DNA of 35,982 bases from Candidatus Micrarchaeota archaeon (GTDB lineage Archaea; Micrarchaeota; Micrarchaeia; Anstonellales; JAGGVH01). The notes beneath the pieces were generated by a model, which was given only the letters and a program-made list of their open reading frames with translations, did not search any database and was not told the origin of the DNA. Shown in pieces: positions 16,152 through 33,010 of the stretch (its first letter is position 1; every line of letters begins with the position of its first letter). The stretch is from positions 1 to 35,982 of the forward strand of contig CAYOKY010000001.1 of NCBI GenBank assembly GCA_964404695.1. The letters are read 5' to 3'. The translations under genes and the position numbers were made by a program.

Positions 16152-16508
16152 ATGAAAAGATCTAAAGGTAAGTTGTGTGGCAAAACACGAACAATGGCAA
16201 GAGGTATCAAGGTAATTACTGTTAATCAACATTTTAAGACTTTTGAACCCGGTGAGAGTGTATTGCTTAAGTTTAAACCAAAAGATATGTTAAAATATCC
16301 ACATGCGAGATTTAATAAAAAGCACGGTGTAATTGTCAATAAACAGGGTAATGCTTACAAAGTTAAACTTAAGGATGGCAATAAAATAAAGTATTTGGAT
16401 ATTACACCCATACATTTGGAACGTTCAGTTTCAAAAGCTCCGAAAACTAAAACTGCTAAGGTAAAAACTGAACCTAAAACTAAACCTAAATCCGAGGCGA
16501 TTAAATGA
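16152..16508 (+). CDS. rpl21e: 50S ribosomal protein L21e with Lys-rich C-terminal extension
   Basis: MKRSKGKLCGKTR..., FEPGESVLLKF, YPHARFNKKHGVIVNKQGNAYKV and ITPIHLE. The start is re-called to ATG 16152 because GTG 16143 is inside the SD GGTGAT. The stop overlaps the rpoF ATG (ATGA). Confidence 0.85.
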   Translation: MKRSKGKLCGKTRTMARGIKVITVNQHFKTFEPGESVLLKFKPKDMLKYPHARFNKKHGVIVNKQGNAYKVKLKDGNKIKYLDITPIHLERSVSKAPKTKTAKVKTEPKTKPKSEAIK

Positions 16509-17161
16509 TTGGTGAAGAAGTAATATCTAAACGTAAGGTGTCTGTAGTAGAAACATTAGACTACCTGAATGAACGTAAAAAGATCGGTGCATTATCCTAT
16601 GAACAACAGACTAGTTATGATTATTGTAAGAAGTTTAGTTATTTGCCCAAAGAGCAGGTTAAAGAACTCATTGCGAAATTGATGGAAAAGGGATTGCCCG
16701 AGGATATTGCTGTTAATATTGCAGATGTTTTTCCTGGTCATGAATCTACATTAAGTGTTATTATTTCTAAACATACTGTTGATATTAAAGAAATTCAGGC
16801 AATTTTGGATGAATATCGTGAGATTTCTAAAGAGTATAGGCAAACATTAGATATTGAAATCATTGAAGAAAAAGAAGCAAAGGATAATGAAGCCAAGGAA
16901 AAAGAAGCCAAGGAAATTGAAGATAAGGCCAAGGCAAGTGAAGTTGAGGATACCGCTGAAGTTGAGGACAAAGAAAAATCTAAGGAAACTGCGGACAAAT
17001 CTAAGGATAAAATAGTTGAAACTGAAGAAAAGGTTAAAATCAAAACTAAAGCTAAGGCAAAATCTAAAACAAAAAAACAACCTGAATCTGATGAAGCTGA
17101 ACCGGTTAAGAAACCCAAAAAAGCCAAAAAAGCCAAAAAAGTGAAGAAAGCTAAGGAATAA
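16505..17161 (+). CDS. rpoF: DNA-directed RNA polymerase subunit Rpo4/F with about 110-aa K/E-rich tail
   Basis: The N-terminal ~105 aa (VSVVETLDYL...SYEQQTSYDYCKKFS...VKELIAKLMEKGLPEDIAVNIADVFP) resembles archaeal RpoF. Its position between L21e and DUF655 matches the conserved archaeal gene order. The tail is EKEAKDNEAKEKEAKEIEDKAK...KKPKKAKKAKKVKKAKE. Confidence 0.75.
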   Translation: MIGEEVISKRKVSVVETLDYLNERKKIGALSYEQQTSYDYCKKFSYLPKEQVKELIAKLMEKGLPEDIAVNIADVFPGHESTLSVIISKHTVDIKEIQAILDEYREISKEYRQTLDIEIIEEKEAKDNEAKEKEAKEIEDKAKASEVEDTAEVEDKEKSKETADKSKDKIVETEEKVKIKTKAKAKSKTKKQPESDEAEPVKKPKKAKKAKKVKKAKE

Positions 17162-17920: not shown

Positions 17921-17933
17921 GTTGTTCACCGGA

Positions 17934-17961
17934 TTTTTTTAATTTTTAATTTTCTTTTTTT
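17934..17961 (+). terminator. Oligo-T termination region after the DUF655 gene
   Basis: T7 (17934-17940), T5 (17943-17947) and T7 (17955-17961), all within 45 nt of the stop. Confidence 0.4.
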
Positions 17962-18021
17962 CTTTGTTCCAACTTCTTATTTTCATATCTCCTTTTGTTG
18001 TTAAAAATGGTTAAAAGAAAG

Positions 18022-18030
18022 GTTTAAATA
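18022..18030 (+). promoter_or_regulatory. TATA-like box GTTTAAATA for the 1711-aa gene
   Basis: Preceded by a purine-rich AAAGAAAG (BRE-like), about 45 bp upstream of ATG 18070. SD AAGGTGAT lies at 18058-18065. Confidence 0.35.
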
Positions 18031-18069
18031 TCCCTCTCCACATACTTTATACTATAAAGGTGATTATTT

Positions 18070-21000
18070 ATGGCTAGAAATGATGGCGACCCCCCAAATG
18101 ACGAATCTGGTAATTCCAGTGAAGTCACTGATAGACGTTTTGATGAAGAACAACAATTATGGATTATTAGAACTTATTCAGATGAAACCAAATCCAGGAT
18201 AACAAAAACTGTATTTTTTAATCCTGATAATGTAAAAACAGGAATGAGGGAAATGTATTCAGATGATAGAACCAAGTATACTCATTATTACAATGACGGG
18301 TCAATAAGAACAGAAACCATTTATTCTGCAGAAGGCAAAGAAAGATATTTTGACGATGGTATTCTAGAAAGTCGTATTAATTATTCTAATAATGGCAAGA
18401 AATATGTAATGCATGAATATTACCCTGGCGGAAATGATAAAACTGATATCCATTATCATGATGACGAAACTGTAAGTTCTATAACTAATTACAATCCTGC
18501 CGGCAAAAAACAAAGTAGTATTCGCTATAATGAAGAAGGCAAGAAAACTTCTGAAGATGGATATTATCCAGATGGAACCAGACAAATAGAGACATTTTAT
18601 AATGATGATGAAACTGTAAACTTCATAAACTATTTTTATCCAAACGGCAAAAAAAGCAAATATGTTTCTTATCATAATGGTGAATCTTTAAGTAGTGAAA
18701 CAGAGTATAATGAGCAAGAAGAAAAAATCCAGGTTATTAATTATTATGATGATAGGTCTAAATCAGTTGAAAATTATGAGTATACAAGTGAAATGACTAT
18801 AACAACGACAACAATGTTTAATACTGACGATGAGCAAATCAAGATGGAAGTTGAAACCCGTAAAAATGATGACAATTTTATTGGAGAACTAATTGCAAAA
18901 CGGGTATATGATAAAGGGGTCTTGACATACAATTTTGTAACTGGTTTGGATACTGGTTCTGTGTCAACTGAGTTTTATTATAAACCTGATAGCAATGTCC
19001 CTTCGTTTGTAAAAAGATTTGATGATTTGAATGGAAATGTTAGAAAGTTACAGTTTGATGTTCGTGAAGAAAATAATAATTTCTTTAATAATTTTTTTAT
19101 AAATGAAAATAATATTCAATATGCTTATTATCATAATAAACAAGGGAAATTGAATAACATTGTAATTAGAACCTATAAACAAGTTGAAGGATCAGAAAAG
19201 CCGGTTGTGGTTAAATACGAGGATATTAATATGTCTTCAGGCAAAAAAACAACCCAAGAATATAATGATGATGGCACTAATAAGGGAAGAAAACTGAAAG
19301 AGAAATTAACTGCAGAAGCAATTAATGATTTTAAACAAAATTTATATTCTGTGTATGAAGAAGTAAAACCTGAGCTTGAAGCTTTTGCTGACAATCTTTT
19401 TATTATTACAAGTAAAAAGGTTGATGTAAGCATTTTGAGTTATGAGGCACATAACAAGGAAACTGAAATTTTTGTTGCTGAACAAAAAAGAAAAGAAACT
19501 GTCAAAGTAAATAACACTGAATTGAAAAGGCTTGGGAATGAGTTGGCAGAAATAGTTGCTAAAAGAACTTGGGAAGATTATCCTAACCTGGTTAATAAAA
19601 TCAAGGAAATTAAGAAAATTGCGGAAATAGGTGTTGAAAACAATTCTAAGCCGGCTAAGAAAATATTAAAGAAACTTGATTGGATATTGTTTGCTATTGA
19701 TGAACATGAACAAATGGCTGGCGATGTAACATCTATTCCTAAAAATAAACTTAGGGCAGATATTGTTTCTGCTGTTGAGAAGATTCCTACTTACATTGAT
19801 AAAGTTGTAACTAAATCTGAAGATACAAGAACTACTGGGGAGAAATTAATGCAGTTTATGAAACAACCCAGAACCTTTAGAAAACGTAAACCAGTGGACA
19901 CATTTGAGGAAGTAAATAAAGAAGTAAATGAAGAAGTAGTATTACCTGTAGGTGATGCAGTTGTTGCTGCAGTTGTTGGTGCAGTACCTGTAGAAGCACC
20001 TGTTGATACAGTATCTGACCCTATAGCTGAAGTAGTAGAACCTGTAGATAAAACTCCCGTAGAACCAACAAAACCAAGTGATAAAACACCTATTATTATT
20101 GCTGTTCCTGAAACTGATATCGAGCTTGCTTCTATTTTAAGTGCAGAAGATGGTTTGGAAAAGTATGATCTTTTACAGCAATGGGTTGAAAGGAAATATC
20201 TTTTGGCAACCACTCTTAATGACGTTGAACGAAAGTTGAATGAAACACTTAGGTTGAACGATGCAAACTATGCAGATTTACTTTTGGAAAATTTAAATGA
20301 CACTAAACAAATGCTTGATTCTGAAGATGCAAGTATCTTTGAAGATAGAATAAAAGATCTGATTAAATCTGTTAATGGTAAAAAGGAAAAGGAATTGTCT
20401 TCATCTAACGCTACAGATCTATTTAATTATGAAATAAAATTATTTGACGACCTAGTTGGTTCAATACGAAAAAGTAAAATCGAAAATGCTGAAAATATTT
20501 TATTGTATTTCAAGGGTCAAATTGAAACAATATACAATGATATAAATGATTTGGGTGCATATACTGAAGAAAAAGTAGATGGTAAAGAAAAAGTAGAAAA
20601 AATTGCAGAGGTTTATATTGACCAAACAAAATTAGATAAATTGTCAACAGTTGTCATTAAAACATGCGGTTTGATAAATAATATGCATCTTAATTCCAAA
20701 TCTGTAAAGGGATATCAGAAACTTATTGACAACATTCTTCAATGCAAGATTAGTTTGAATGATCTGCCTCCCACTAATACAAATGGAATTAAGAAAGAAA
20801 CCTTGAAAATGGTTAATTTATTGAAAACTGCCGCCGGTGAAAAGAAAATTAAACCTGTTAAACCTAAAAAAGAAAAAAATAAGAACGCTGAAAAAGCAGA
20901 AAAACTTGAAGTTGAAGTTGTATTTAATTCAAATGAATTTGAAGTTTTCAGTAAGTTTGCTGACCTTTTGGTTGCAAAGGAAAAGCTCAAAAAATCAAAG

Positions 21001-23205
21001 TATGACAAAGAAGTGCTTGCAAAAGAGCAGGACATTAAGAAGGAATTTACAGCAGTTTTGGATGGAAAAGTAAGTAGTTTAGATTCAGACCATAAAAATG
21101 CAGTTATGTCAAAAGCGTTTAAGTATGTAGCACTGGAAATGAACGAAAAGAGAAATCAGGATAACCGATTATTGTATGGGATTGGCAGAAAATTAAGGAC
21201 TGTCCCAGGGATTGCAATTACTATTGCAGTTGGAATAGCAGGTGTTGCACTTGCTCCTGTTTCTGTTGGCGCTTCAGTTGGGTTGCTTAGTGTTTATGCA
21301 CTTGCAAGAGGAGTATCAACTTATATGGGTGTTAACGGTATCATGACTGCTGTCCATAGGGGAATAAGACAAAAAACAGGCGACGTAACCAAAAGGTTGG
21401 GCGCGTCTATCATGTATGGTGTTGATAACAAAGGCGTTAATCAAAACATTGGAAAAAACGTGTCCCTTGTAACTGGCGCAATAAACAGTGCTGTTGAAGA
21501 TGTAGTTGATAAAACAGTGGATGCTGTTGGAGATGCAGTTGATAAAACATCGGGCGTTGTTGGAGATGCAGTTGATAAAACAGTGGATGTTGTTGAAGAC
21601 ACTGCAATTAACGTTGAAAACATTGTTAATGGAATTACTGATTACGCAACCAAGTTTAGAAATTATAAGATCATCAGGCATAGTGTTGGTGCAGTTGCCG
21701 GAATTGCAGCAATATTTTCCGCAAATACATCAGCGAATAATGTCTTTGATTATGCTAAGGATGTAATTGAAAAAGGCCCGATCCAGGCTACAAAAGATGT
21801 AATCGTTGAGGGAGTCCACAACTGGTCATTATTCTTTAAGAAGATGTTTGGCAAAGCAGAAGTTCCCTCAGTTGCTAACGCGGACAGTTTAATTGTTAAT
21901 GATTCAATACATCAAGGCAATATAATTGCTGTATCTAAAGAAGGTTTAGATGTAGCTTCAAAGGGAAGTTTAGATGTAGCTCCAAAGGGAAGTTTAGATG
22001 TAGCTCCAAAGGGAAGTTTAGATGTAGTTCCAAAGGGAAGTTTAGATGTAGCTTCAAATGGAAGTTTAGATGTAGCTTCAAATGGAAGTTTGGGTGTAGT
22101 GTCAGATACTCCTGGAATAGTGCCTAACGAAACTATAACTCCTAGTTCATCTAATGATTCCTTACTTGCACGGGCAAAGGAGTCTTTAATGCAAAAGTTC
22201 TTCCCAGATTCCGATGCATCAGTTGGGAATGTCAATGATATAATTATTTCAGGGGATCCAGTTGTTGCACCTAATTCAGTTGTTGTATCTACTCCAGTTG
22301 TTACACCTACTCCAGTTCCAGTTGTTGCACCTAATTCAGTTGTTGTATCTACTCCAGTTGTTGCACCTACTCCAGTTCCAGTTGTTGCACCTGTTGATAC
22401 TCCTCTTACAAATGTTCCAACTAGCGCAGATTCAGTTACACAGGTACAGACCAGTATGTTAAAAAAAGTGTTTGATAAACCTGCCCCTGGTTCTACAGTT
22501 GTTACAGGTGACTTAGGATTGTCGCAGATAGTTTTGGGTGACTCTCCTTTAGGTGATTCTGCAAATATTTTGGATACAACTGGATTGACAGGTGCACAAT
22601 TAGGTGATACATTATCTGATTCAAGTTTAGTTACAGGTTCAATTGATACACTGCATACTGATACTATTACAAACATTGATTCAGGTTCATTTGTGAGTGA
22701 TGTTGATACCATTATCCCTGCTGATACTATTGCAGGCCTTGATAGTCCTACACCTTTAGACACTACTATTCCTGTGAAGGGAGCAGTTGATGTGTTTAAT
22801 GGAGATAGTGGTGTTGTAAATGTTGTTATGCCTACTGCTACGGCTCAAGTGCTAGAATTTACTGCACATGAAGGCGATGGCATTTGGGATTTATCAGATC
22901 GTGCTTTGAAGTTCCATTTTGGTGAAGCTTACACCAATCTTTCTGCTGGCGACCAAAACCTTTTGACTGACCGTCTTAAAGATGTGTTTGTTGACAATCC
23001 TGGGCTAATTGGCCTGGATACTACTGAAATTTATACTTCTCCAAATCTGGATGGGATAGGTCTTAGGTTACATGCAGTTGCAGAAAAACTTGTGGACAAA
23101 GAAATGATTGACCAGGCGCTTGGTATATTCAAAAATAAGCTTGGTAATACTGCAAAAGTTGCAGGTAATCTTTCCAAGGTAACCAAGGTAAAGATGGGCG
23201 CTTAA
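18070..23205 (+). CDS. Giant (1711 aa) multi-domain membrane protein: MORN-variant/YwqK-like repeats, long helical region, internal TM helices, repeat-rich C-terminal half
   Basis: Uninterrupted 5.1-kb ORF with its own SD, promoter-like box and flanking T-tracts. No N-terminal signal peptide. About 23-aa Y..(N/D)G...Y repeats lie at roughly 18200-18800. The middle is K/E-rich helical. A P/V-rich spacer lies at roughly 19930-20110. Hydrophobic helices lie at roughly 21200-21345 and 21679-21725. Tandem peptide repeats follow downstream. Confidence 0.85.
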   Translation: MARNDGDPPNDESGNSSEVTDRRFDEEQQLWIIRTYSDETKSRITKTVFFNPDNVKTGMREMYSDDRTKYTHYYNDGSIRTETIYSAEGKERYFDDGILESRINYSNNGKKYVMHEYYPGGNDKTDIHYHDDETVSSITNYNPAGKKQSSIRYNEEGKKTSEDGYYPDGTRQIETFYNDDETVNFINYFYPNGKKSKYVSYHNGESLSSETEYNEQEEKIQVINYYDDRSKSVENYEYTSEMTITTTTMFNTDDEQIKMEVETRKNDDNFIGELIAKRVYDKGVLTYNFVTGLDTGSVSTEFYYKPDSNVPSFVKRFDDLNGNVRKLQFDVREENNNFFNNFFINENNIQYAYYHNKQGKLNNIVIRTYKQVEGSEKPVVVKYEDINMSSGKKTTQEYNDDGTNKGRKLKEKLTAEAINDFKQNLYSVYEEVKPELEAFADNLFIITSKKVDVSILSYEAHNKETEIFVAEQKRKETVKVNNTELKRLGNELAEIVAKRTWEDYPNLVNKIKEIKKIAEIGVENNSKPAKKILKKLDWILFAIDEHEQMAGDVTSIPKNKLRADIVSAVEKIPTYIDKVVTKSEDTRTTGEKLMQFMKQPRTFRKRKPVDTFEEVNKEVNEEVVLPVGDAVVAAVVGAVPVEAPVDTVSDPIAEVVEPVDKTPVEPTKPSDKTPIIIAVPETDIELASILSAEDGLEKYDLLQQWVERKYLLATTLNDVERKLNETLRLNDANYADLLLENLNDTKQMLDSEDASIFEDRIKDLIKSVNGKKEKELSSSNATDLFNYEIKLFDDLVGSIRKSKIENAENILLYFKGQIETIYNDINDLGAYTEEKVDGKEKVEKIAEVYIDQTKLDKLSTVVIKTCGLINNMHLNSKSVKGYQKLIDNILQCKISLNDLPPTNTNGIKKETLKMVNLLKTAAGEKKIKPVKPKKEKNKNAEKAEKLEVEVVFNSNEFEVFSKFADLLVAKEKLKKSKYDKEVLAKEQDIKKEFTAVLDGKVSSLDSDHKNAVMSKAFKYVALEMNEKRNQDNRLLYGIGRKLRTVPGIAITIAVGIAGVALAPVSVGASVGLLSVYALARGVSTYMGVNGIMTAVHRGIRQKTGDVTKRLGASIMYGVDNKGVNQNIGKNVSLVTGAINSAVEDVVDKTVDAVGDAVDKTSGVVGDAVDKTVDVVEDTAINVENIVNGITDYATKFRNYKIIRHSVGAVAGIAAIFSANTSANNVFDYAKDVIEKGPIQATKDVIVEGVHNWSLFFKKMFGKAEVPSVANADSLIVNDSIHQGNIIAVSKEGLDVASKGSLDVAPKGSLDVAPKGSLDVVPKGSLDVASNGSLDVASNGSLGVVSDTPGIVPNETITPSSSNDSLLARAKESLMQKFFPDSDASVGNVNDIIISGDPVVAPNSVVVSTPVVTPTPVPVVAPNSVVVSTPVVAPTPVPVVAPVDTPLTNVPTSADSVTQVQTSMLKKVFDKPAPGSTVVTGDLGLSQIVLGDSPLGDSANILDTTGLTGAQLGDTLSDSSLVTGSIDTLHTDTITNIDSGSFVSDVDTIIPADTIAGLDSPTPLDTTIPVKGAVDVFNGDSGVVNVVMPTATAQVLEFTAHEGDGIWDLSDRALKFHFGEAYTNLSAGDQNLLTDRLKDVFVDNPGLIGLDTTEIYTSPNLDGIGLRLHAVAEKLVDKEMIDQALGIFKNKLGNTAKVAGNLSKVTKVKMGA
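21493..21600 (+). repeat. 33-bp in-frame tandem repeat x3.3 (peptide V[EG]DxVDKTxxx)
   Basis: 21493-21525, 21526-21558 and 21559-21591 share GTTGGAGATGCAGTTGATAAAACA cores. Confidence 0.8.
21937..22104 (+). repeat. 24-bp in-frame tandem repeat x7 (peptide [KN]GSLDVA[SP])
   Basis: Seven consecutive 24-nt units, with AAGGGAAGTTTAGATGTAGCTCCA as the core. Copies 2 and 3 are identical; the others differ by 1-5 nt. Confidence 0.95.
22261..22393 (+). repeat. 60-bp in-frame tandem repeat x2.2 (peptide VVAPNSVVVSTPVV[TA]PTPVP)
   Basis: 22261-22320 and 22321-22380 differ at a single base (ACA/GCA). A 13-nt partial third copy follows. Confidence 0.95.
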
Positions 23206-23284
23206 TTTTTTCTTTTTTATTTATTGTTATTTACTTTTATTTACTTTATCCTTATTTTTATCTTCTATGTTTCATTTAGTTTTT

Positions 23285-23332
23285 ATTTTATTTTCTATTT
23301 TATTTTCTATTTTATTTTCTATTTTATTTTCT
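23285..23332. repeat. 12-bp tandem repeat ATTTTATTTTCT x4 in a T-rich spacer
   Basis: Four perfect copies, with degenerate T-rich copies on both sides (23206-23400). It probably also acts as an oligo-T terminator region for the giant gene. Confidence 0.9.
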
Positions 23333-23434
23333 ATTTTTCATTTTATTTTGTTCAATTTATTTTTTTACTTATTTCTGTTTATTGGTTTTTGTCTTTCCGC
23401 AATCAATAAAAACTAATGTAACTATTTATTTATT

Positions 23435-24495: not shown

Positions 24496-25371
24496 ATGAA
24501 ATCTAACCGTGGAAATAAAAGTACTATTTGTGGTGAGCAAACAGGTTCATCTGATACTAATTCAAATTTACATAAAACAAATTTAACTAATTTTTCTGGA
24601 CGGAAGTCTATCCGTGCATTTCATGGGCGTGCAATTAAACCTGTTGTTGCAGTTGTAGTTGCTACTATTATCGGCGCTTGTGTGTTAATTTTATCTGCAT
24701 GTTCAAAGTCAATGGGTCCAAAAGAACCTGCTGACAACGGCGTAACATTGAATGTATCTCCTGACACTGTAAAAGTTCCAAGTGCATTTGTTTTAAATAG
24801 TTTAGTTACAAATCCTGATGGTCGTATACAATTGGATGACCGACAACTTTTAGTTATATTATCACAAGGTGGGCATGCAATTGCTGAGACAACCTTGGTG
24901 CCAGATTCTACAAACACAATTATTTTAAAACCAGAGATTGTTGGTAATGGCGATATTAAATGTCGTGTTGCATTGTCTAATATTTATGAGGGCGTTTTTG
25001 AAGCTGAAGATTCAGCAACTATTGTGAACGAAACTGGCGGATGGACATTAAAACCTATTTCACATGTATCCGAAGGGTTCGTTGATACTGTTATGATTCA
25101 TGTTGCTGACAGCACAGTAGACAGCACAGCACTTGAGACAGTAACTTTGACTGTTGTTGGAATGGATGATGACAATGTTCGTTTCAAGATTACAAGTATT
25201 GATTTTGAGGGCAATGAACATATCTTGAATGATGTTATAATTTCACAGGATGAAGCAAGGTTTGAAGCTGTACCTGTTGCAGGCCCGTTCTCTGATGGAA
25301 GGACTTTATACATTTTAGGGCCGGTAATTAATCTTGATGGAACGACATCTTTTCAAGTTGTTTTATTTTAA
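24496..25371 (+). CDS. Putative surface lipoprotein or membrane-anchored beta-rich protein
   Basis: Polar N-terminus, hydrophobic helix VVAVVVATIIGACVLILSAC with lipobox-like L-S-A-C, then a beta-rich domain. SD GGAGGT lies 7 nt upstream. It is the first gene of a co-directional trio. Confidence 0.6.
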   Translation: MKSNRGNKSTICGEQTGSSDTNSNLHKTNLTNFSGRKSIRAFHGRAIKPVVAVVVATIIGACVLILSACSKSMGPKEPADNGVTLNVSPDTVKVPSAFVLNSLVTNPDGRIQLDDRQLLVILSQGGHAIAETTLVPDSTNTIILKPEIVGNGDIKCRVALSNIYEGVFEAEDSATIVNETGGWTLKPISHVSEGFVDTVMIHVADSTVDSTALETVTLTVVGMDDDNVRFKITSIDFEGNEHILNDVIISQDEARFEAVPVAGPFSDGRTLYILGPVINLDGTTSFQVVLF

Positions 25372-25411
25372 ATAATTAAAATTCAGAAATGATGATTAAG
25401 AGGGATTATGT

Positions 25412-28400
25412 ATGATATATAAAAATGTAAATTTACCAAATCTGTTGCCAATCTTCCTGATTGGGGTTTTAGTATTAGGTATCGGCATGTTAAACTTGGC
25501 AGTTGTGCCTATGCAACCGTTTAACGAAAAGATTACTGCGAAAGCTGATGTTGGCGATACTGTTAGTATTCATGATTATATAAAAACTTCAGACGATTCT
25601 GAAGACGACAGTGATATTGATTACAGTCCCCAGATAAATAAGCCTGTAGCTGTAGCAATAAACCCTCATACGCTTATTAAGAATGATTATTCAAAATATT
25701 CTTACAAACCGACAGATTCTGTGCCTAAACCTGTTACCTCTACCGGTACAGTTATCAAGCCACAGTTTTCCGTTGATAAAGATGCTTATCCTGTTAAGGT
25801 TCCTGCAATTGTTTCCCCAGTTGATTTGAATGATACTGAATGTTCTGAAGAGCCGGAAATTAATGTACATATTGCTCCAAGTTATGTTCAGGCAGGTGAA
25901 GATTTTTATGTTTACATTTATGTTCATAATTCCAACCCTCTGGATTGTGAACCTATTGAATATTCATACTCTTTGGATTTACCATCCAGATGGAGTTATG
26001 AAACTGAATCGTCCTCTTCAAATGTTATTGTGTCTTCTGGTTTAACGTCCACTATAATTGCCAGAGTTACACCTGAAAATATTTCTGGGAATTATGATTT
26101 TGATTTAATTGTTGAATATGATGGTGAAGAATACACTGATGAATTAACAGTTACTATTGATACTCGTGAACTTTCAGATATTGATTTACAACCTGATCAT
26201 GTTGACGTTTTAATCGGCGAAGAAATTAATTTTGAAGTTATCGGTTACGATTCATTTGGTAATCTGATAAACATTACTTCTGACATTTGCGAATGGGAAA
26301 CTACAACTGGCGATATTGATAACGGTGTTTTAACTGTTAACGAGTTTGTTAATGGTGAAGTTACAGTTAACTGCAGTGGTCATTCTGATGTTTCAACAGT
26401 TAATGTTACAGGTTGTTTAAGTTATGAACCTACTATTACTGTTAATGCTCCGATTATTGTACCTCAACTTGAAACTTTTGTAATTAATGTTACTATATAT
26501 AATAATGATAATGTATTGTGCGGTTGCACTAACTATTCAATTGACACAAGCCATGAATGGCATAGTTTGATTGGTGATGATCATGTTACTTTGGAAATAT
26601 GTCCAAACGAAACTGCTGATTTGACTTTAGAGTTTACTGCACCTTTGGAATCTGGCGAATATGATTACATTATCAACGTTTCAAATGTTGATGACAATTC
26701 AATTTATACTGATTATTCAAACACTTTGGTTGTAAGCAGTTCACCTGAATTATTCTTGACTGCATCAGATAATGATGTTTATTCTGGTGAATATGTTGAT
26801 TTGTATTACATTTTACAGGATTATGAAGGTAATATGTATGAAGGCGATACTGTTGAATGGACTGTTCTTAACGGTACAGTTGACGGTGATGTTTACATTC
26901 CCTCAGAATATAGTTGCAATGATACAGTTACACTTAATATTACAAAGAATGGTTTTGAATATATTAAACAAGTTAACATTAGTGTTACTAAAATTGACCG
27001 TGTTGAAATTATGCCTGCAAACACAACAGTTGGTGCTGGCAGTGTTATAGGTTATATATACAGGTTATACAGTGATTTGGATGAAGTAATTATTCCTGAA
27101 GATGATTGGTTTGCAATGTTTGATTCTCCTGCCGGTAGATTTAGTGGCAGTCAATTAAGAGCAGAAAACTTAGGTGAACATTATGTTCATGTTATGTTCT
27201 GTGCAAACGATCTTAGACCTTTGGAATTGAGAAGGGCAATGCCTGGTAGTGAATCAATGCCAATTTGCAATGGTAGGATTATTGATGGTTATACTAATGT
27301 AATAGTTAGTACTGGTACTATTGCAACTTTAAGAATTGAACCAAACACTGCGGACGTAGGTCCTGACGGTGAATTGTTTACTGCTTACGGTACCAACAGT
27401 ATGGGTGTTGAAGTTATATTCGTTGCAGACTGGACAGTTGCAGATCCTTATGTTGTCTTTACAACTCCCAATTCTACTATCAATGCAACAGCTTTAGGGT
27501 TTGAAGGCCCAACAGTTTTGACTGCTGATGTAGGTGGTGTTACAGCTGACGCTAATATTAATGTTGACGGTTTAGCTCCAAGGATTGATTATCTTAATCC
27601 TACTCCTGAAGAAGGTTTGATATATGCAAACCCAATAACTTTCAACGTTAGTGTTGATGATGCAAACCTTGTAAATGTTTATTTTGTTGTTGACGGCGTT
27701 GAATACGATGCAACTGTTGTCAGTGGTTATTCAAGTTACAGTTTAGACCTTACAAGTGGCATACATGAGTTAATAGTTTATGCAGTTGACTCGTTTGGCA
27801 ACAGGGCAGAATTGCCTGCAAAAGTGTTTGCAGTAATTGGTGATTCTCTCACTACAATTGTTGAAGATCCTGTTAATGAATCTTATATAACAACTACTGA
27901 AACTGTAAATTTTGTTATTGAAGATTTGAATGGATTAAATGAAATGAATTATTATGTTGATGGTATTTTGACAACTGAGCCGTTGATGGGCAATGACTAT
28001 GAATTGAACATAACTTTGGACACTGTTGGTGACCACGTTATTGAAATAACAGTCTTGGATGAATTGGGCATTTCAACAACATTTGTTTACATTTACCATG
28101 TTGAGCTTGCACCTGTCATTATTTTAGATGAACCTTTGGATGGTAGGTTATTGTTTGATGATACTGTTGGCATGGTTTCAGATGACATAGTTTTCAATGT
28201 TTATGATTCTGATGGTGACATTTTAGGAATCCCACAATATTCTTTTGATAATGTTACATGGTACTATTTCATGGGCATGACTGCTCCAGAATTCTGGCAG
28301 TTGCAAGGTTCAGACCTTGACCCAGTTTCACCTGGTGATGTTATAACTATTTACGTAAGCGCACAGGATGATGATCATCACTGGACTTATGAATCATTTG

Positions 28401-30637
28401 AGTTTGTAATCGTTGAGGGTGATGCGCACGTTGATATGTTGCCAATTTGTGGCAGTGAACTTATTGAAACCGATGTCATTACTATTGATGTAATCCCTGG
28501 CACTTTAATTGTTGACAATATTGGGTGGGATTATGAAATTGGTTACTTAACTGATTTCCCGATTACTGCAGAATTGTATACTGTTCCGATTAATGTTGAT
28601 ACAATTTTCTTTGATGAGAATGTTGAAGGCAACATTACATTAGGTGTAAGATGGTCTGAAAGTCACGGGTTTGACATGACTTGGTATGATTCATTCTGTA
28701 ATTATAATATTAATCACAAGCCAAACATAAATTTGACTTCACATGTAAATGGATCTAATATCTATGGTTCAACTGTCTTAGATTTTAATATTTTGGATTA
28801 TGACGGCATTGATTATGTTACATTTACATGGGACGGCATTTACGAGATTGTTGCTCCAGCACCTTATGATGTTCCTGTTGACTCAAGAATCATGGATGAA
28901 ATTGGTGAACATAACTTAACAGTTTATGTGGTTGACGCTAGTGGTCTTGCTAGAGAGAACAACAAATATTATGTATTTGATATTGTTCAGGGTCCAGGCA
29001 TAATTTGGTCTAATGAAGGCAATGCTACAATACTTATGGATGGCGATAACAATTTAGTAATTGCAGATGAAAATTTGGTTTTCAATATAACTTCAGATTA
29101 TGGCCTTGCAGTTTTAACATACCAGTTTGATAGTGGTCCAGTTAACAATTTATTGCCTTTGGAATCTGGTGAACATACAATTACTATCCCTGCAGATTAT
29201 GGTGAAACTAACATTACAATCTATGCTGGGGATGAGTACGGTTATAGTCACGAGGAAACTTATGATTTGATAATTGAACGTTATCCAAAAATTGTTTCAA
29301 CTAATCCTGCAAACGGTTTTTCAGTTGCTGGGTTGTATGACATAATCTTTGACATTGAGGACAATGATGATGTTATTGGTGAATATTACTGGAATGGTGA
29401 CGAAAGGTCAAGAGAAGTAATGTATGATGAATCTCCAGATTACTTTGTATCAACTTACAGGGCTCATCCTGACATGAATACATTGTACGTTGAGATTTGT
29501 GATGCAGATTATTACGATGTGCTTTGTATTGAACAAAACTATACTTTCATGGGCGAGCTTAATGCGCCTTGGTTTACTGTCAACACTACAAATGAATCGG
29601 TAATTGGTGTTGATGAAGTTATCAATGTTTCAAGCTATGATTCAGTTGGATTGGCATTCTTAAACTATACGTGCAACTTAACTGATTACTCTATCGCATT
29701 AAGTGGCAATGAATCAAATGACAGTTTAGAATGTTCATGGATTGAAGGCGAAAACATTGTTGACATTACTGTTGAAGACAGTGATGGTGTGACTGCAAGT
29801 GACACTTATGTGTTCTATTATGACAACGAGGCACCGCAGATTGTAATGGATTCACCCGTATATACTGATGGTATGACTATCTTGAATGGTGACTGGTTGA
29901 ACTTTAGCATAACTGATACCACAACTGTTACTGTAGTATACTGGTGGGATTTGGATTCAAATATTTCTTTAGCAGATCCTTATGACTTTACAGCACCTAA
30001 CAATCCTGGTGAACACACACTCCATGTTAATGCTAGTGACGGAAGCTTATGGAATCATAAAGAATATAACTTTGTCATAAACGGTTTGCCTAGTTTGCCT
30101 GGCAATATGACTGGTAGAGTTGTAGATACTGAAGGCGATGGTATAAATGCTTCAACTGTAATTTTAATCTATTCAAATGGTACTGTTGCAGGTACAAATA
30201 TGACCAATGATACTGGCTACTACCTATTCAATAGTTTTGATGCTGGGGCATATAGAGTTAATGCTTCAAAAGATGGCTATAAAGATAATTCAATGGCTTG
30301 GTTTATGATTGTTTCTGGTGAAGAAATGCCTGCTGATGATGATATTGAATTAGAACAATATGGTATAATTAAGGTGTATGTAAGGAATATTACTAATCCT
30401 TCAATTCCTATTGATGCAGATGGAGCAGTTGTTGAATTATGGGATTTTGATGCAGATCCTGCTATTAATAGTTCATTATATTTTTGTACTACGAATTCAA
30501 CTGGCAGATGTGAATTTGCTAACGTAGAAGCAGGTGGTTATAAAATTAATGCTTCACTTGGTACTTTAAATAGTACTTTCACTCCGTTTACTGTTGATAT
30601 CGGCGAAATAGAATCTCGTACTGTATTGATTAATTAG
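25412..30637 (+). CDS. Giant (1741 aa) extracellular Ig-like-repeat protein with N-terminal signal-anchor and two C-terminal carboxypeptidase-regulatory-like domains
   Basis: N-terminus LLPIFLIGVLVLGIGMLNLAVVP. A Big_2-like segment reads DIDLQPDHVDVLIGEEINFEVIGYDSFGN...VTVNCSGHSDVSTVNVT. At least 7 modules of about 95-100 aa end in G(E/D)H.(L/I).V.(A/V).D..G. The end reads GRVVDTEGDGINASTV...NDTGYYLFNSFDAGAYRVNASKDGY, which is CarboxypepD_reg-like. Confidence 0.85.
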   Translation: MIYKNVNLPNLLPIFLIGVLVLGIGMLNLAVVPMQPFNEKITAKADVGDTVSIHDYIKTSDDSEDDSDIDYSPQINKPVAVAINPHTLIKNDYSKYSYKPTDSVPKPVTSTGTVIKPQFSVDKDAYPVKVPAIVSPVDLNDTECSEEPEINVHIAPSYVQAGEDFYVYIYVHNSNPLDCEPIEYSYSLDLPSRWSYETESSSSNVIVSSGLTSTIIARVTPENISGNYDFDLIVEYDGEEYTDELTVTIDTRELSDIDLQPDHVDVLIGEEINFEVIGYDSFGNLINITSDICEWETTTGDIDNGVLTVNEFVNGEVTVNCSGHSDVSTVNVTGCLSYEPTITVNAPIIVPQLETFVINVTIYNNDNVLCGCTNYSIDTSHEWHSLIGDDHVTLEICPNETADLTLEFTAPLESGEYDYIINVSNVDDNSIYTDYSNTLVVSSSPELFLTASDNDVYSGEYVDLYYILQDYEGNMYEGDTVEWTVLNGTVDGDVYIPSEYSCNDTVTLNITKNGFEYIKQVNISVTKIDRVEIMPANTTVGAGSVIGYIYRLYSDLDEVIIPEDDWFAMFDSPAGRFSGSQLRAENLGEHYVHVMFCANDLRPLELRRAMPGSESMPICNGRIIDGYTNVIVSTGTIATLRIEPNTADVGPDGELFTAYGTNSMGVEVIFVADWTVADPYVVFTTPNSTINATALGFEGPTVLTADVGGVTADANINVDGLAPRIDYLNPTPEEGLIYANPITFNVSVDDANLVNVYFVVDGVEYDATVVSGYSSYSLDLTSGIHELIVYAVDSFGNRAELPAKVFAVIGDSLTTIVEDPVNESYITTTETVNFVIEDLNGLNEMNYYVDGILTTEPLMGNDYELNITLDTVGDHVIEITVLDELGISTTFVYIYHVELAPVIILDEPLDGRLLFDDTVGMVSDDIVFNVYDSDGDILGIPQYSFDNVTWYYFMGMTAPEFWQLQGSDLDPVSPGDVITIYVSAQDDDHHWTYESFEFVIVEGDAHVDMLPICGSELIETDVITIDVIPGTLIVDNIGWDYEIGYLTDFPITAELYTVPINVDTIFFDENVEGNITLGVRWSESHGFDMTWYDSFCNYNINHKPNINLTSHVNGSNIYGSTVLDFNILDYDGIDYVTFTWDGIYEIVAPAPYDVPVDSRIMDEIGEHNLTVYVVDASGLARENNKYYVFDIVQGPGIIWSNEGNATILMDGDNNLVIADENLVFNITSDYGLAVLTYQFDSGPVNNLLPLESGEHTITIPADYGETNITIYAGDEYGYSHEETYDLIIERYPKIVSTNPANGFSVAGLYDIIFDIEDNDDVIGEYYWNGDERSREVMYDESPDYFVSTYRAHPDMNTLYVEICDADYYDVLCIEQNYTFMGELNAPWFTVNTTNESVIGVDEVINVSSYDSVGLAFLNYTCNLTDYSIALSGNESNDSLECSWIEGENIVDITVEDSDGVTASDTYVFYYDNEAPQIVMDSPVYTDGMTILNGDWLNFSITDTTTVTVVYWWDLDSNISLADPYDFTAPNNPGEHTLHVNASDGSLWNHKEYNFVINGLPSLPGNMTGRVVDTEGDGINASTVILIYSNGTVAGTNMTNDTGYYLFNSFDAGAYRVNASKDGYKDNSMAWFMIVSGEEMPADDDIELEQYGIIKVYVRNITNPSIPIDADGAVVELWDFDADPAINSSLYFCTTNSTGRCEFANVEAGGYKINASLGTLNSTFTPFTVDIGEIESRTVLIN

Positions 30638-30646
30638 GTGATTAAT

Positions 30647-33010
30647 ATGAATATGAAAAATGTATTAATGTTTTTTGTTTCGTTGTTAGTATTCAGCGGA
30701 CTATTATTTTCTGGTTCATTTTTTGGTAAGGTCGTTGATGATGACGGAGCAGCTTTGGAAAATGTTCAAGTTAGTGCTATTAATGGCACTGTTCCTCCTT
30801 CAACTAATTATACTGATTCCTCTGGGGAATTTATTATTAATGATCTCGTTACATCTGACTATTTTTTTGAGTTTTATTATAATGTTGATTATCATACTTT
30901 TACAACGTCAACATTTACTTTAAATATTGCCGATAATATTAATTATACTATTCTTAATGCAGGACCTATAGTTTTAGATAAAAAAGATGAACCTTCTCCT
31001 GGTCCCAGTCCTTCTGGTGATGGTAAATTTTTTGGTAAAGTTCTTAATAAAAGTAATACAACCATTAATATTTCGGGGGCAGATTTATCATTATATAATG
31101 ATGATGGAGATTTAATTGCATCAAACACTTCTGACGTAGATGGAAATTATATTTTGAAGTTTAGTGATGATGATGATTATATCATTAGTGTTTCCGCAGA
31201 CAATTTTATGGGTGATACATTTAATTTTGATGATGTTATTGTTTCAGATAATAATGAGAATTTAGAACTTGAACCAGCAACATTAACCACTTATTCATTT
31301 ACTGGTGTTGTAGAAGAGTATGGTTCCAATATTCCTTTACAGTATGTTAATGTAGATTTAAGTTACCCTAATGGTACTGTAATGAGTGATACTACTAATG
31401 CAAACGGCGAATATTCCTTCCAAGTTGTTGCTGGCAATTATGGTTTAATTAAATTTACTTTGACTGGATATTTAAGTAAAGAAACAAACGTTGGTTACAT
31501 CGGTTTAAATGAAGTTTTCCAGGATATTCAACTTCATAGTTTGTCAATTGAATCAATATTAACAGGCACTGTTACTGATATTGACACTGGTAGTGTACTT
31601 GAAGAAGTTGCAATTACTAATTCATCTGGCGATGTTTTAGATACAACTGATGCAAGTGGGCAATATTCCTTTACAATTGATGAAGGTACATATGATATTA
31701 CTTATGCTTTGATTGGTTATGAATCGCAGACAATTGGGATCTTAATTGGATCTGGCACTAATGTTGAAAACGTTGTACTTGACTCTACTCCTTTTGGTCA
31801 GGTTCATGGTTATGTAACAGATGAAAACGGCGATGGTTTGGATGGTGCAGAAGTTTCAAGTTCAGGTTTTACAAACCTTACAAATGATTCTGGTTATTAC
31901 TTGTTAAATTTACCTAATGGTAGTCGTGATATTGCTGTTTCATTGAATGATTATGATAATGAAATGGAAAAGGTTAATATTGAAGAGGGTATAACTAAGG
32001 AACAAAACTTTACGTTGTCTGTTTCACATGATGATGATAATGATCGTTCATCTTCATCATCAAGAAGAACCAGTTCAACTTCAACAACAACCACTCCTTC
32101 TATTCCTTATACATCTACTACTACAACTGAACTTGACCAGGATGGGTTGCAGGTTGAACGTAAAATCGTTACAGTTAGGGATGAGGAAACTAAGGTTATT
32201 TTAACTATCACTAATTACGGTGATGATGTAGGCCCATTTGAGTTAAGGGAACATCCTCCAAGTTACATTGATGAAAATGATATTTCAGATTATTCTCTTG
32301 ATCCTTATGAAACTGTATCCAGTCCGTTGACTTTGGTATGGAGATTTGACGGTTTGAAAGAAAATGATAAAATTGTTTTTGCATATACTCTTGATAAAGT
32401 TTATAGTACGATGAAAGAGTCACATTTTGATGCAAGCATTTATGATATATCTGCAAGTGTACCTCAACCACAATTGAAAGAGGACAAAGTAATCGTGACT
32501 GCACCTACCAAAGGGTTTGTAGGGGATACGATTACTGTAATTATTACTGAAGAAGACGGTGAACTTTTGCCTAATCAGAATGTTTTAATTGTTTCACCTT
32601 ACCATAATACGTTTACCAAAACAACTAATGATGAAGGTAAAATATCTGTAACTTTGGAGATTGAAGGTGTTTACAGTTATTTGGTGCCTAACAAGGTTTT
32701 GACTGAAGATGCTACAACCGAAGCAGTTTCAAGAAGCCAGGTTCAAATAGTTGAATTGAATGAAACTAATATTACAACTACAGCTCCTAAGAATACAGAT
32801 TTCATTAGTAATTTCATGGCAACGTTGGGTGAACCGGGCATACTTTTGCCTGCAATTGGATTGATTTTCATAGGTATAGTATTGTTCCTTTTTGTCGGTG
32901 CGTATATTGGTTACTTGGCGTTTGCGCCTGAAAAAGAAGAACCTGAAGAAGAAGATAAAGATATGGGTGAAGAATCAATAGTGCTTGAAACAGGAGACCT
33001 TGAAAATTAA
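30647..33010 (+). CDS. Surface protein: signal peptide, 5 carboxypeptidase-regulatory-like domains, S/T-rich linker, beta-rich region, C-terminal TM anchor with acidic tail
   Basis: MNMKNVLMFFVSLLVFSGLLFSG, then G[KTY]V.D..G..L..V.V......T.[DT]..G.Y motifs x5, then DDDNDRSSSSSRRTSSTSTTTTPSIPYTSTTTTE, then PGILLPAIGLIFIGIVLFLFVGAYIGYLAF followed by EKEEPEEEDKD. The start is re-called to ATG 30647 because GTG 30638 lies in the SD AGGTGAT. Confidence 0.85.
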   Translation: MNMKNVLMFFVSLLVFSGLLFSGSFFGKVVDDDGAALENVQVSAINGTVPPSTNYTDSSGEFIINDLVTSDYFFEFYYNVDYHTFTTSTFTLNIADNINYTILNAGPIVLDKKDEPSPGPSPSGDGKFFGKVLNKSNTTINISGADLSLYNDDGDLIASNTSDVDGNYILKFSDDDDYIISVSADNFMGDTFNFDDVIVSDNNENLELEPATLTTYSFTGVVEEYGSNIPLQYVNVDLSYPNGTVMSDTTNANGEYSFQVVAGNYGLIKFTLTGYLSKETNVGYIGLNEVFQDIQLHSLSIESILTGTVTDIDTGSVLEEVAITNSSGDVLDTTDASGQYSFTIDEGTYDITYALIGYESQTIGILIGSGTNVENVVLDSTPFGQVHGYVTDENGDGLDGAEVSSSGFTNLTNDSGYYLLNLPNGSRDIAVSLNDYDNEMEKVNIEEGITKEQNFTLSVSHDDDNDRSSSSSRRTSSTSTTTTPSIPYTSTTTTELDQDGLQVERKIVTVRDEETKVILTITNYGDDVGPFELREHPPSYIDENDISDYSLDPYETVSSPLTLVWRFDGLKENDKIVFAYTLDKVYSTMKESHFDASIYDISASVPQPQLKEDKVIVTAPTKGFVGDTITVIITEEDGELLPNQNVLIVSPYHNTFTKTTNDEGKISVTLEIEGVYSYLVPNKVLTEDATTEAVSRSQVQIVELNETNITTTAPKNTDFISNFMATLGEPGILLPAIGLIFIGIVLFLFVGAYIGYLAFAPEKEEPEEEDKDMGEESIVLETGDLEN

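Follow-up and report, generated by a model that had tools for sequence, protein, structure and literature searches.

What is the 1711-amino-acid (aa) protein encoded at positions 18070..23205 (+) of contig CAYOKY010000001.1, the 35,982-nucleotide (nt) stretch of archaeal DNA analysed here in its entirety (the window)? An initial annotation had compared it to the junctophilins of eukaryotes, with cytoplasmic MORN-type repeats, a long helical spacer, membrane helices and an outward-projecting stalk, and had proposed a cell-cell contact role. Our comparative analysis leads in a different direction. The protein appears to belong to an undescribed archaeal family whose members are polytopic in the membrane, to have been expanded in this lineage, and to serve as a trans-membrane tether or scaffold with an outer domain, a reading that we consider about evenly balanced between right and wrong. 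To regard the protein as a cell-surface or host-contact candidate is reasonable but unproven, and its function, ligand and localisation are inferred. What is new here is the delineation of an unannotated archaeal membrane-protein family; no new mechanism is demonstrated.

The open reading frame (ORF) itself was correctly described from the outset: 1711 codons plus stop, beginning with ATG and uninterrupted, a 5.1-kb frame in a genome of 33% G+C. The stop-to-stop frame opens at 18064, just two codons before the ATG at 18070, which is the first possible start; there is therefore no hidden N-terminal extension or signal peptide, and the N-terminus (MARNDGDPPNDESG…) is hydrophilic by hydropathy, in keeping with the absence of a signal peptide noted at first reading.

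The family became visible in an exhaustive phmmer search with residues 512-1711 against 1.84 billion cluster representatives, which returned 39 non-self matches, 24 of them on the KGSLDVAP repeat block of the stalk and 15 on the core, the helical region or the C-terminal domain. The former group was rejected as homologues: the two inspected, P0009 and P0012, are eukaryote-type low-complexity repeats, while the other 22 were judged by query coordinates alone. In the latter group, P0004-P0008, P0013, P0020, P0022, P0023, P0028 and P0040 match aa ~885-1268 with E-values down to 1.7e-46 (1.7e-46 to 5e-25 for P0004-P0008), P0026, P0034 and P0041 match the C-terminal domain, and P0011 matches the helical region. 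Further members are P0043, from a profile search, an 816-aa ORF in L028, from a metagenome scan, and paralogues beside P0007 (L032) and P0022 (L017). In word-indexed searches the full sequence retrieved nothing but itself, and the core profile retrieved two proteins. That makes about 15-19 relatives, all uncharacterised and archaeal, 360-1230 aa long and 19-37% identical over the core. The 1711-aa protein carries both of the features that mark the family, namely the core module (alignments A1 and A2; hmmsearch with the core profile places it at residues 956-1280, E 6e-77) and a C-terminal 'GxGIWH' domain following the last hydrophobic helix and a linker (profile E 1.8e-33 to 7e-39). The early statement that no archaeal system of this kind had been described is thus correct in that the family carries no annotation, but the protein does not stand alone: it has relatives in one other Micrarchaeota genome at least, and elsewhere. 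P0004 (MCC7570245.1) is listed as 'hypothetical protein [Candidatus Micrarchaeota archaeon]', and a close relative of the window organism may carry a family member of 808 aa, at another locus. Scans of the relatives gave nothing at threshold in Pfam (10 scanned), NCBIfam (6) or PADLOC (2), the only NCBIfam report being SidA_fam, whose 24 bits fall short of the cut-off of 60, and the core profile found nothing among Protein Data Bank (PDB) sequences. In two genomes, family members stand as tandem paralogues (L032 5272-7929 and 8001-9911; L017 10001-11593 and 11629-12864).

Throughout the family the N-termini are variable, lack a signal peptide and are mostly coiled-coil; in one distant member, P0041 (L033 1388-5074), residues 309-367 of the cytoplasmic N-terminal part resemble an FtsK-gamma winged helix, at a sub-threshold 20.6 bits vs 30.6. 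The core starts with a 'YA(D/E)LL(V/R)AKEK' helix, followed by ~70 helical residues and a basic segment whose R and P, standing before helix 1, are invariant in the family alignment. In its middle lie a Gly-rich hydrophobic hairpin, the motifs '…HR…' and 'LGA.V.Y' and a loop, and it ends with a basic helix 'YA.K.R..K..K', a third hydrophobic segment and a P/T-rich linker. The C-domain of ~100 aa reads 'V(P).G.GIWHI…F.NLS…K..ID.LKD….NP.K.GL…EIIPRA…GGPWL..GA' and is followed by a basic Ala-rich tail. The 1711-aa protein follows this plan from aa 956 onward: the 'FADLLVAKEKL' helix and basic juxtamembrane segment occupy aa 956-1044 (20935..21201; A1/A2), a Gly/Ala-rich hydrophobic hairpin aa 1045-1088 (21202..21333; Kyte-Doolittle and Hessa scans, kept in 14 relatives), the conserved cytoplasmic loop motifs …MTAVHR… and LGASIMY aa 1089-1132 (21334..21465; A1/A2, with a near-invariant His), and the basic amphipathic helix 'YATKFRNYKIIRH' with the third hydrophobic helix aa 1183-1222 (21616..21735; A1/A2, Hessa), all on the + strand, as are the features given below. 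The same core, P/T linker, GxGIWH C-domain and basic tail are found in P0004-P0008, P0020, P0022, P0023, P0026, P0028, P0034, P0040 and P0043, but those proteins have unrelated coiled-coil N-termini, neither the hairpin array nor the VDKT insert, and a linker of at most ~140 aa. Peculiar to the 1711-aa protein are aa 1-955 (the array, two helical regions with ~540 aa of extra helices, and a P/V spacer), a set of VDKT 11-mers and the long stalk.

How the chain would cross the membrane can be judged from hydropathy and from the charges beside the hydrophobic segments. Hydropathy marks aa 1042-1079 as one long hydrophobic stretch and the neighbourhood of aa 1205-1222 (nt 21682-21735) as a shorter one, so that the two back-to-back helices (within aa 1045-1088) and third helix (aa 1205-1222) first proposed are indeed there, and they recur in the relatives, with the third segment found in 10/14. 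On the Hessa-scale sum only helix 1, at about 1.4 kcal/mol, comes out strong; the sums for helices 2 and 3, at 4-5.6 (helix 3 up to 7), are marginal. Averaged over 12 aligned members, the net charge is +4.3 before helix 1 (20 aa), +2.8 after helix 2 (25 aa), +3.3 before helix 3 (20 aa) and -0.2 after it (30 aa). By the positive-inside rule these values fit an arrangement with the N-terminus in, a hairpin, the loop in, helix 3 and the C-terminus out; the N-terminus and loop would then be cytoplasmic, with ~60% of the mass of the 1711-aa protein predicted to lie on that side, and the linker and C-domain outside. An external location for the last ~490 aa, as the initial annotation had it, is thus favoured by the flanking charges in 12 members, but tempered by the marginal values of helices 2 and 3. 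The last 489 aa are S/T/P/G/V-rich and low in K+R (0.063 vs 0.150), and 8 N-glycosylation sequons lie C-terminal to helix 3 vs 4.3±1.8 expected.

The same data bear on another possibility, that only aa 1045-1088 enters the membrane and that the purported stalk and the C-domain are intracellular, making this a wholly cytoplasmic, hairpin-anchored protein of the monotopic kind seen in reticulons and perilipins. Helix 3 is indeed short and marginal (Hessa 4.3-7), the third segment is absent in 4/14 relatives at the threshold chosen, and the amphipathic 11-residue VDKT repeats give weak matches to perilipin and ApoL. However, the position of the third segment is conserved, as is the basic helix before it, and the fall in charge from +3.3 to -0.2 is family-wide; the linkers downstream are P/T/S-rich and K/R-poor, with an excess of sequons, and the paralogue L032_885, too, has its C-domain beyond a P-rich linker that comes after the last hydrophobic helix. 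We therefore regard the hairpin-only arrangement as rather unlikely. The VDKT repeats themselves (aa 1133-1182, 21466..21615) are a loop insert found only in the 1711-aa protein and missing from all relatives in A1. With repeat periods determined by BLOSUM autocorrelation against 200 shuffles, aa 1130-1190 show a period of 11 (z 6.4), and Tandem Repeats Finder (TRF) reports 33 nt x3.4 at 84%; these repeats are the source of weak matches to perilipin, ApoL, MT0933 and tape-measure proteins.

The N-terminal half is where the junctophilin comparison had its origin. A regular beta-hairpin repeat array spans aa 61-237 (18250..18780), with periods of 24 and 12 over aa 60-240 (z 6.2 and 5.2); its unit is a 12-aa half-repeat, Y-[YN]-x-x-G-K-K, with 24 aa per hairpin. 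Scanned alone, aa 61-237 match DUF2963 (PF11178) in five stretches at 30.5 bits, above the cut-off of 22.6 (E 2.4e-7), the sole family cut-off passed by the protein in Pfam segment scans. Over aa 1-410 the DUF2963 score is 21.3 bits and the full-length scan does not report it; Pfam and NCBIfam scans of the full-length protein are in fact empty, and DUF2963 was exposed by segment scans only. MORN_2 (PF07661) stays below its cut-off of 29.6 bits, with 19.8 on aa 61-237, 8 on aa 1-410 and nothing at full length, and MORN (PF02493) gives no match in either the full-length or the segment scans. A beta-hairpin repeat array is thus well supported, and the roughly nine MORN/YwqK-type units of ~23 aa originally counted are beta-hairpin repeats of 12/24 aa for which 'MORN-type' describes, at the level of sequence, a resemblance and not membership; DUF2963 is the closest sequence family.

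Beyond the regular array, beta-rich sequence appears to continue irregularly to about aa 410 (aa 238-410, 18781..19299), as strands seen only in a single-sequence AlphaFold2 (AF2) model, with a predicted local distance difference test (pLDDT) below 50 and no family match. That model, of aa 1-410, has 27 consecutive strands from aa 30 to 410 and a low mean pLDDT of 42.7 (55-74 for aa 121-230), and Foldseek aligned it with generic single-layer sheets (OspA, Rhs/YD, teneurin; TM scores 0.1-0.3), with no MORN structure among the matches. A PDB sequence search with the N-terminal region found nothing. When the first 410 aa were used as the query of a word-indexed search, nothing was returned either, a weak negative in that it missed the protein itself. 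There follow, as first described, K/E-rich helical sequence and a P/V-rich spacer: helical region I (aa 411-615, 19300..19914; K+R 0.19, D+E 0.17, no family match), a P/V/A-rich acidic spacer recognised by composition and hydropathy (aa 616-680, 19915..20109), and helical region II (aa 681-955, 20110..20934). A hydrophobic patch in the spacer, aa 621-648, is acidic and interrupted by Pro, and is not a convincing membrane helix. Similarity to a 928-nt metagenome fragment (P0011/L030), 55% identical over aa 669-772 (58% over aa 679-774 in the phmmer match), means that a closer relative sharing the helical region exists.

Read as a junctophilin-like staple, the protein would grip the inner face of its own membrane with cytoplasmic MORN-type repeats and, by way of the helical spacer, anchor and stalk, bridge to a second cell. 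Hairpins of MORN-like period, a long helical region, membrane helices oriented N-in/C-out and a DPANN organism all suit such a picture, and the order of hairpin repeats, long helical region and membrane anchor is loosely that of junctophilins. On the other side, MORN_2 falls under its cut-off, MORN is not detected, DUF2963 scores better and Foldseek recovers no MORN structure. Junctophilins combine MORN repeats with a single C-terminal tail anchor in a second membrane, whereas the window protein has an internal module of 2+1 helices with some 490 aa after it. With a single archaeal membrane, moreover, gripping at both ends makes no junction. The array is conserved in none of the homologues and so is not the working principle of the family, which keeps the membrane module and the C-domain; the array belongs to the 1711-aa protein only. 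We consider the staple quite improbable.

The DUF2963 match raises a different thought, namely that the array is part of a delivered effector acting on or in a host cell. This is an analogy with the 'Scorpion' proteins of phytoplasmas, secreted DUF2963 effectors of genome-reduced, host-dependent mollicutes whose hairpin unit is about 26 aa, in 2-24 copies per protein (bioRxiv 10.1101/2025.07.14.664665). Like them, the window array consists of tandem beta-hairpin units of ~24-26 aa, and DUF2963 is the only family whose cut-off is passed. Those effectors, however, are small secreted bacterial (Mollicutes) proteins, whereas the window array is the signal-less N-terminus of a membrane protein on an archaeal chromosome, placed on the predicted cytoplasmic side ~1000 aa before the first membrane helix. 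Archaeal DUF2963-like relatives were not found, in a word-indexed search that missed the protein itself. So simple a Y-x-x-G-K hairpin motif can easily converge, leaving ancestry shared with DUF2963 unproven, and a role as delivered effector seems to us very unlikely.

C-terminal to helix 3, aa 1223-1590 (21736..22839) form a presumed stalk or linker, delimited by composition, autocorrelation and TRF, which is low in K/R and rich in S/T/P/V/G/D. Its repeats are far above chance, bearing out the first reading of the sequence, as do the VDKT repeats of the loop. An array of about seven KGSLDVAP units lies at nt 21944-22099 (period 8 over aa 1285-1345, z 12.6; TRF 24 nt x6.5 at 94%) and two 20-aa P/V repeats, VVAPNSVVVSTPVVxPTPVP, starting at aa 1398 and 1418, lie at nt 22257-22392 (period 20 over aa 1395-1445, z 7.8; TRF 60 nt x2.3 at 98%); the LGDS/D/T-rich stretch is likewise present within the stalk. 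From helix 3 to the GIW motif the linker measures ~383 aa vs ~30-140 aa in the relatives. Three of the additions are near-exact tandem repeats at the DNA level by TRF, which points to recent, slippage-driven growth. P0043 (L018 10001-12313) has, over residues 465-770, acquired a long ADS/P-rich linker after helix 3 and a 'KPDTLGG' repeat tail after the C-domain; it did so independently, so repeats have expanded more than once in the family on the side predicted to lie outside. The G+C content reaches 0.39-0.40 at window positions 21000-23000, up from ~0.31 over the gene's first 3 kb; the simplest explanation is the composition of the encoded G/A/V/P-rich membrane and stalk repeats, not foreign DNA.

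The chain ends in the 'GxGIWH' domain, here GDGIWD (aa 1591-1690, 22840..23139; profile match, A3 and AF2), and a Lys/Ala-rich tail of low pLDDT (aa 1691-1711, 23140..23202), with similar basic Ala-rich tails in the relatives. The ~130-aa non-repetitive end singled out in the initial annotation proves both conserved in relatives and confidently foldable: with an alignment of 15 sequences, AF2 gives its core (aa ~1595-1684) a pLDDT of 87-94, and the model runs from a short beta strand through two long helices and a beta-hairpin to further helices. Foldseek, which is weak on very small domains, found no significant match to this model in PDB (best E 0.9, no LysM entry) or BFVD (best E 0.15). Relative to the consensus the window domain has GIWD for GIWH (His to Asp) and has lost GGPWL, with the invariant Trp kept. 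L032_885 has a different body, with a P/E-rich acidic spacer and a series of hydrophobic 'GKGIGAGI' repeats, but after its last hydrophobic helix comes the same GEGIWHI C-domain, which therefore behaves like a module that can be moved between proteins.

The domain opens with a LysM-like beta1-alpha1 motif, 'Y-x-V-x-x-G-x-x-x-W-x-I', a likeness of 16 residues. A profile search of PDB reached LysM repeats of LytE at E 0.005, through the first motif alone; aligned by hhalign with six LysM modules, the domain scored a probability of 48.6% over 16 columns; and the C-domains of P0041 and P0043 end in the LysM-like 'VGQNIDF' and 'PGTKITCT', respectively. Pfam LysM (PF01476), on the other hand, does not match the 1711-aa protein, and in P0041 scores 17.4 bits vs a cut-off of 20.9, over 14 residues. 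With ~100 aa and two long helices, the C-domain is unlike LysM modules except over half a module; the full ~44-aa module and its fold were not recovered, and we do not assign the domain to LysM, although it is possibly a derived one. That its ligand might be a glycan is a guess drawn solely from the beta1-alpha1 motif.

Could the gene instead be decaying, or inflated by assembly, with no specific function? The exact protein occurs once in the public protein collection, on this contig; near-identical tandem DNA repeats are prone to mis-assembly, and the C-domain has diverged. The frame, however, is unbroken over 5.1 kb at 33% G+C, the core and C-domain are recovered by their profiles at E 6e-77 and 7e-39, and the copy number of such repeats changes length, not frame. 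An artefact or relic of this sort is extremely unlikely in our judgement.

The surroundings of the gene are those of an archaeal chromosome. The window contains genes for tRNA-splicing endonuclease, proteasome beta subunit, aCPSF1/FttA, prolyl-tRNA synthetase (ProRS) and Kae1, together with class I lysyl-tRNA synthetase (LysRS), TBP, L21e, DUF655 and KsgA. Two Candidatus Micrarchaeota metagenome-assembled genomes, the nearest relatives of the window, encode DUF655 proteins with 70% and 66% identity to the one found here, and on this basis we place the organism in DPANN (Micrarchaeota-like), as first proposed. Gene order around the locus is kept in Micrarchaeota relatives, except in the slot between DUF655 and ksgA. 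In L002 the order is LysRS, TBP, DUF655, KsgA, a homologue of a 291-aa window protein and a 1716-aa orthologue (38% identity) of a 1741-aa one. The slot holds the 1711-aa gene in the window (17921-23434), a single 134-aa ORF unrelated to it in L002 (10553-11057), and ORFs of 134, 624 and 395 aa, none resembling it, in L001 (10556-14231). The 134-aa ORFs were considered as fragments of the giant gene and rejected (blastp E > 0.1). The gene thus sits in a variable slot of an otherwise conserved housekeeping cluster.

A variable slot invites the suspicion of a viral or mobile-element remnant or cargo, for example a tape-measure-like or ejection protein, and aa 1031-1260 do give PHROG matches to baseplate hub (E 5.7e-5) and tape-measure (E 3.4e-4) families. 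Those matches, however, fall on a low-complexity G/A/V/D/K segment; tblastn against 50,697 phage records was negative, no relative turned up in 2.9 million viral contigs, and the structure search of BFVD gave no match. The homologues all have housekeeping genes around them, and within lineages their surroundings are syntenic. Integrase, tRNA and repeat boundaries are all lacking at the 1711-aa gene, and the window bears no sign of a prophage or mobile element, so that a viral source strikes us as scarcely plausible.

Immediately downstream of ksgA (24496-33010) lie three more probable envelope proteins, of 291, 1741 and 790 aa. The first has an N-terminal hydrophobic segment, the second Big_7, CarboxypepD_reg, SdrD_B and Ig-like domains, with its orthologue at the same place in L002, and the third five CarboxypepD_reg domains; together the three genes may be an S-layer or surface-protein cluster. 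Between L21e and DUF655 is a 218-aa ORF (16505-17161) with a blank Pfam scan and a K/E/A-rich tail of ~100 aa, in a position where archaea usually encode RpoF/Rpb4. Scans for sigma-70 promoters and intrinsic terminators are uninformative for archaeal DNA.

The homologues, too, are found on archaeal chromosomes with housekeeping neighbours: PriS/PriL, L44e, S27e, eIF2alpha and Nop10; the exosome, SBDS and ThyX; arginyl-tRNA synthetase (ArgRS), S12 and S7; isoleucyl-tRNA synthetase (IleRS), enolase, Trm1 and RIO kinase. No universal neighbour or conserved operon partner was seen among them, neighbours being common only to close genomes and syntenic within lineages. Deep-branch members are on contigs of 44-57% G+C beside genes for PurF, NadC, the mevalonate pathway and EPSP synthase, and it is therefore unlikely that the core function is specific to the most reduced symbionts. 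The homologue survey called for in the initial annotation thus yields a Micrarchaeota relative, but the relatives in archaea with such biosynthetic genes weaken a strict DPANN host-bridge reading.

Several points count against the tether or scaffold that we favour, or against extending it to host contact. With biosynthetic genes near the deep-branch members, host attachment is probably not what the core does, and a family as rare as this one (about 15-19 clusters) is unlikely to have a general envelope role across archaea. No characterised homologue appeared among the phmmer, Pfam, NCBIfam, Protein Data Bank or PADLOC matches, and the genome is represented by 36 kb only. Helices 2 and 3 are marginal on the Hessa scale, the N-terminal model is a low-confidence prediction at a mean pLDDT of 42.7, and the divergent C-domain of the window protein may have drifted in function.

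Under the tether reading, the family would couple a cytoplasmic coiled-coil platform through the membrane to an outer domain, which in ordinary members, with linkers of 30-140 aa, would lie in the space under or at the S-layer. On the inner side of the window protein, the DUF2963-type array and ~540 aa of helices could form a large binding platform, and the amphipathic 11-residue VDKT repeats of the loop could lie on the inner leaflet. On the outer side, the repeat stalk of ~370 aa, grown in part by recent DNA slippage, could carry the C-domain past the cell's own S-layer toward a partner surface. In the bacterial LysM scaffolds FimV and HubP, too, a large cytoplasmic scaffold is connected across the membrane with a small binding domain outside, a logic which the window protein resembles in reversed orientation, its outer domain being C-terminal. 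The SPEARE proteins of Nanohaloarchaeota are giant DPANN surface proteins. Like them, the window protein is very large, repeat-rich and lineage-specific, belongs to a host-dependent archaeon and is encoded near giant Ig/CarboxypepD_reg proteins, but it has no protease, nuclease, lectin or Ig domains and no N-terminal signal or anchor.

An apparent orphan thus becomes a member of an alignable, uncharacterised family with a testable topology, whose confidently foldable C-domain has no structural match identified. Its ancestral parts, the membrane module and C-domain, can be separated from the recent growth of array, 11-mers and stalk, and the case is a warning against over-reading analogies with eukaryotic systems such as the junctophilins. 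Little is known at the molecular level of how DPANN archaea attach to their hosts, and electron cryotomography of a Micrarchaeota co-culture has revealed contact structures with unidentified symbiont-side components (PMC11329633). The furthest-reaching interpretation, which we think unlikely, is that the family is a new envelope-spanning tether whose C-domain, a new fold or a strongly derived LysM, would bind a surface glycan or the S-layer, and that it has here become, through repeat expansion, a long-reach host-contact protein, with an extensible stalk of ~370 aa presenting the domain to the host and a cytoplasmic beta-hairpin and coiled-coil platform of ~1000 aa organising the symbiont side of the contact. 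If true, this would give molecular access, for the first time, to a DPANN attachment structure that crosses the symbiont membrane.

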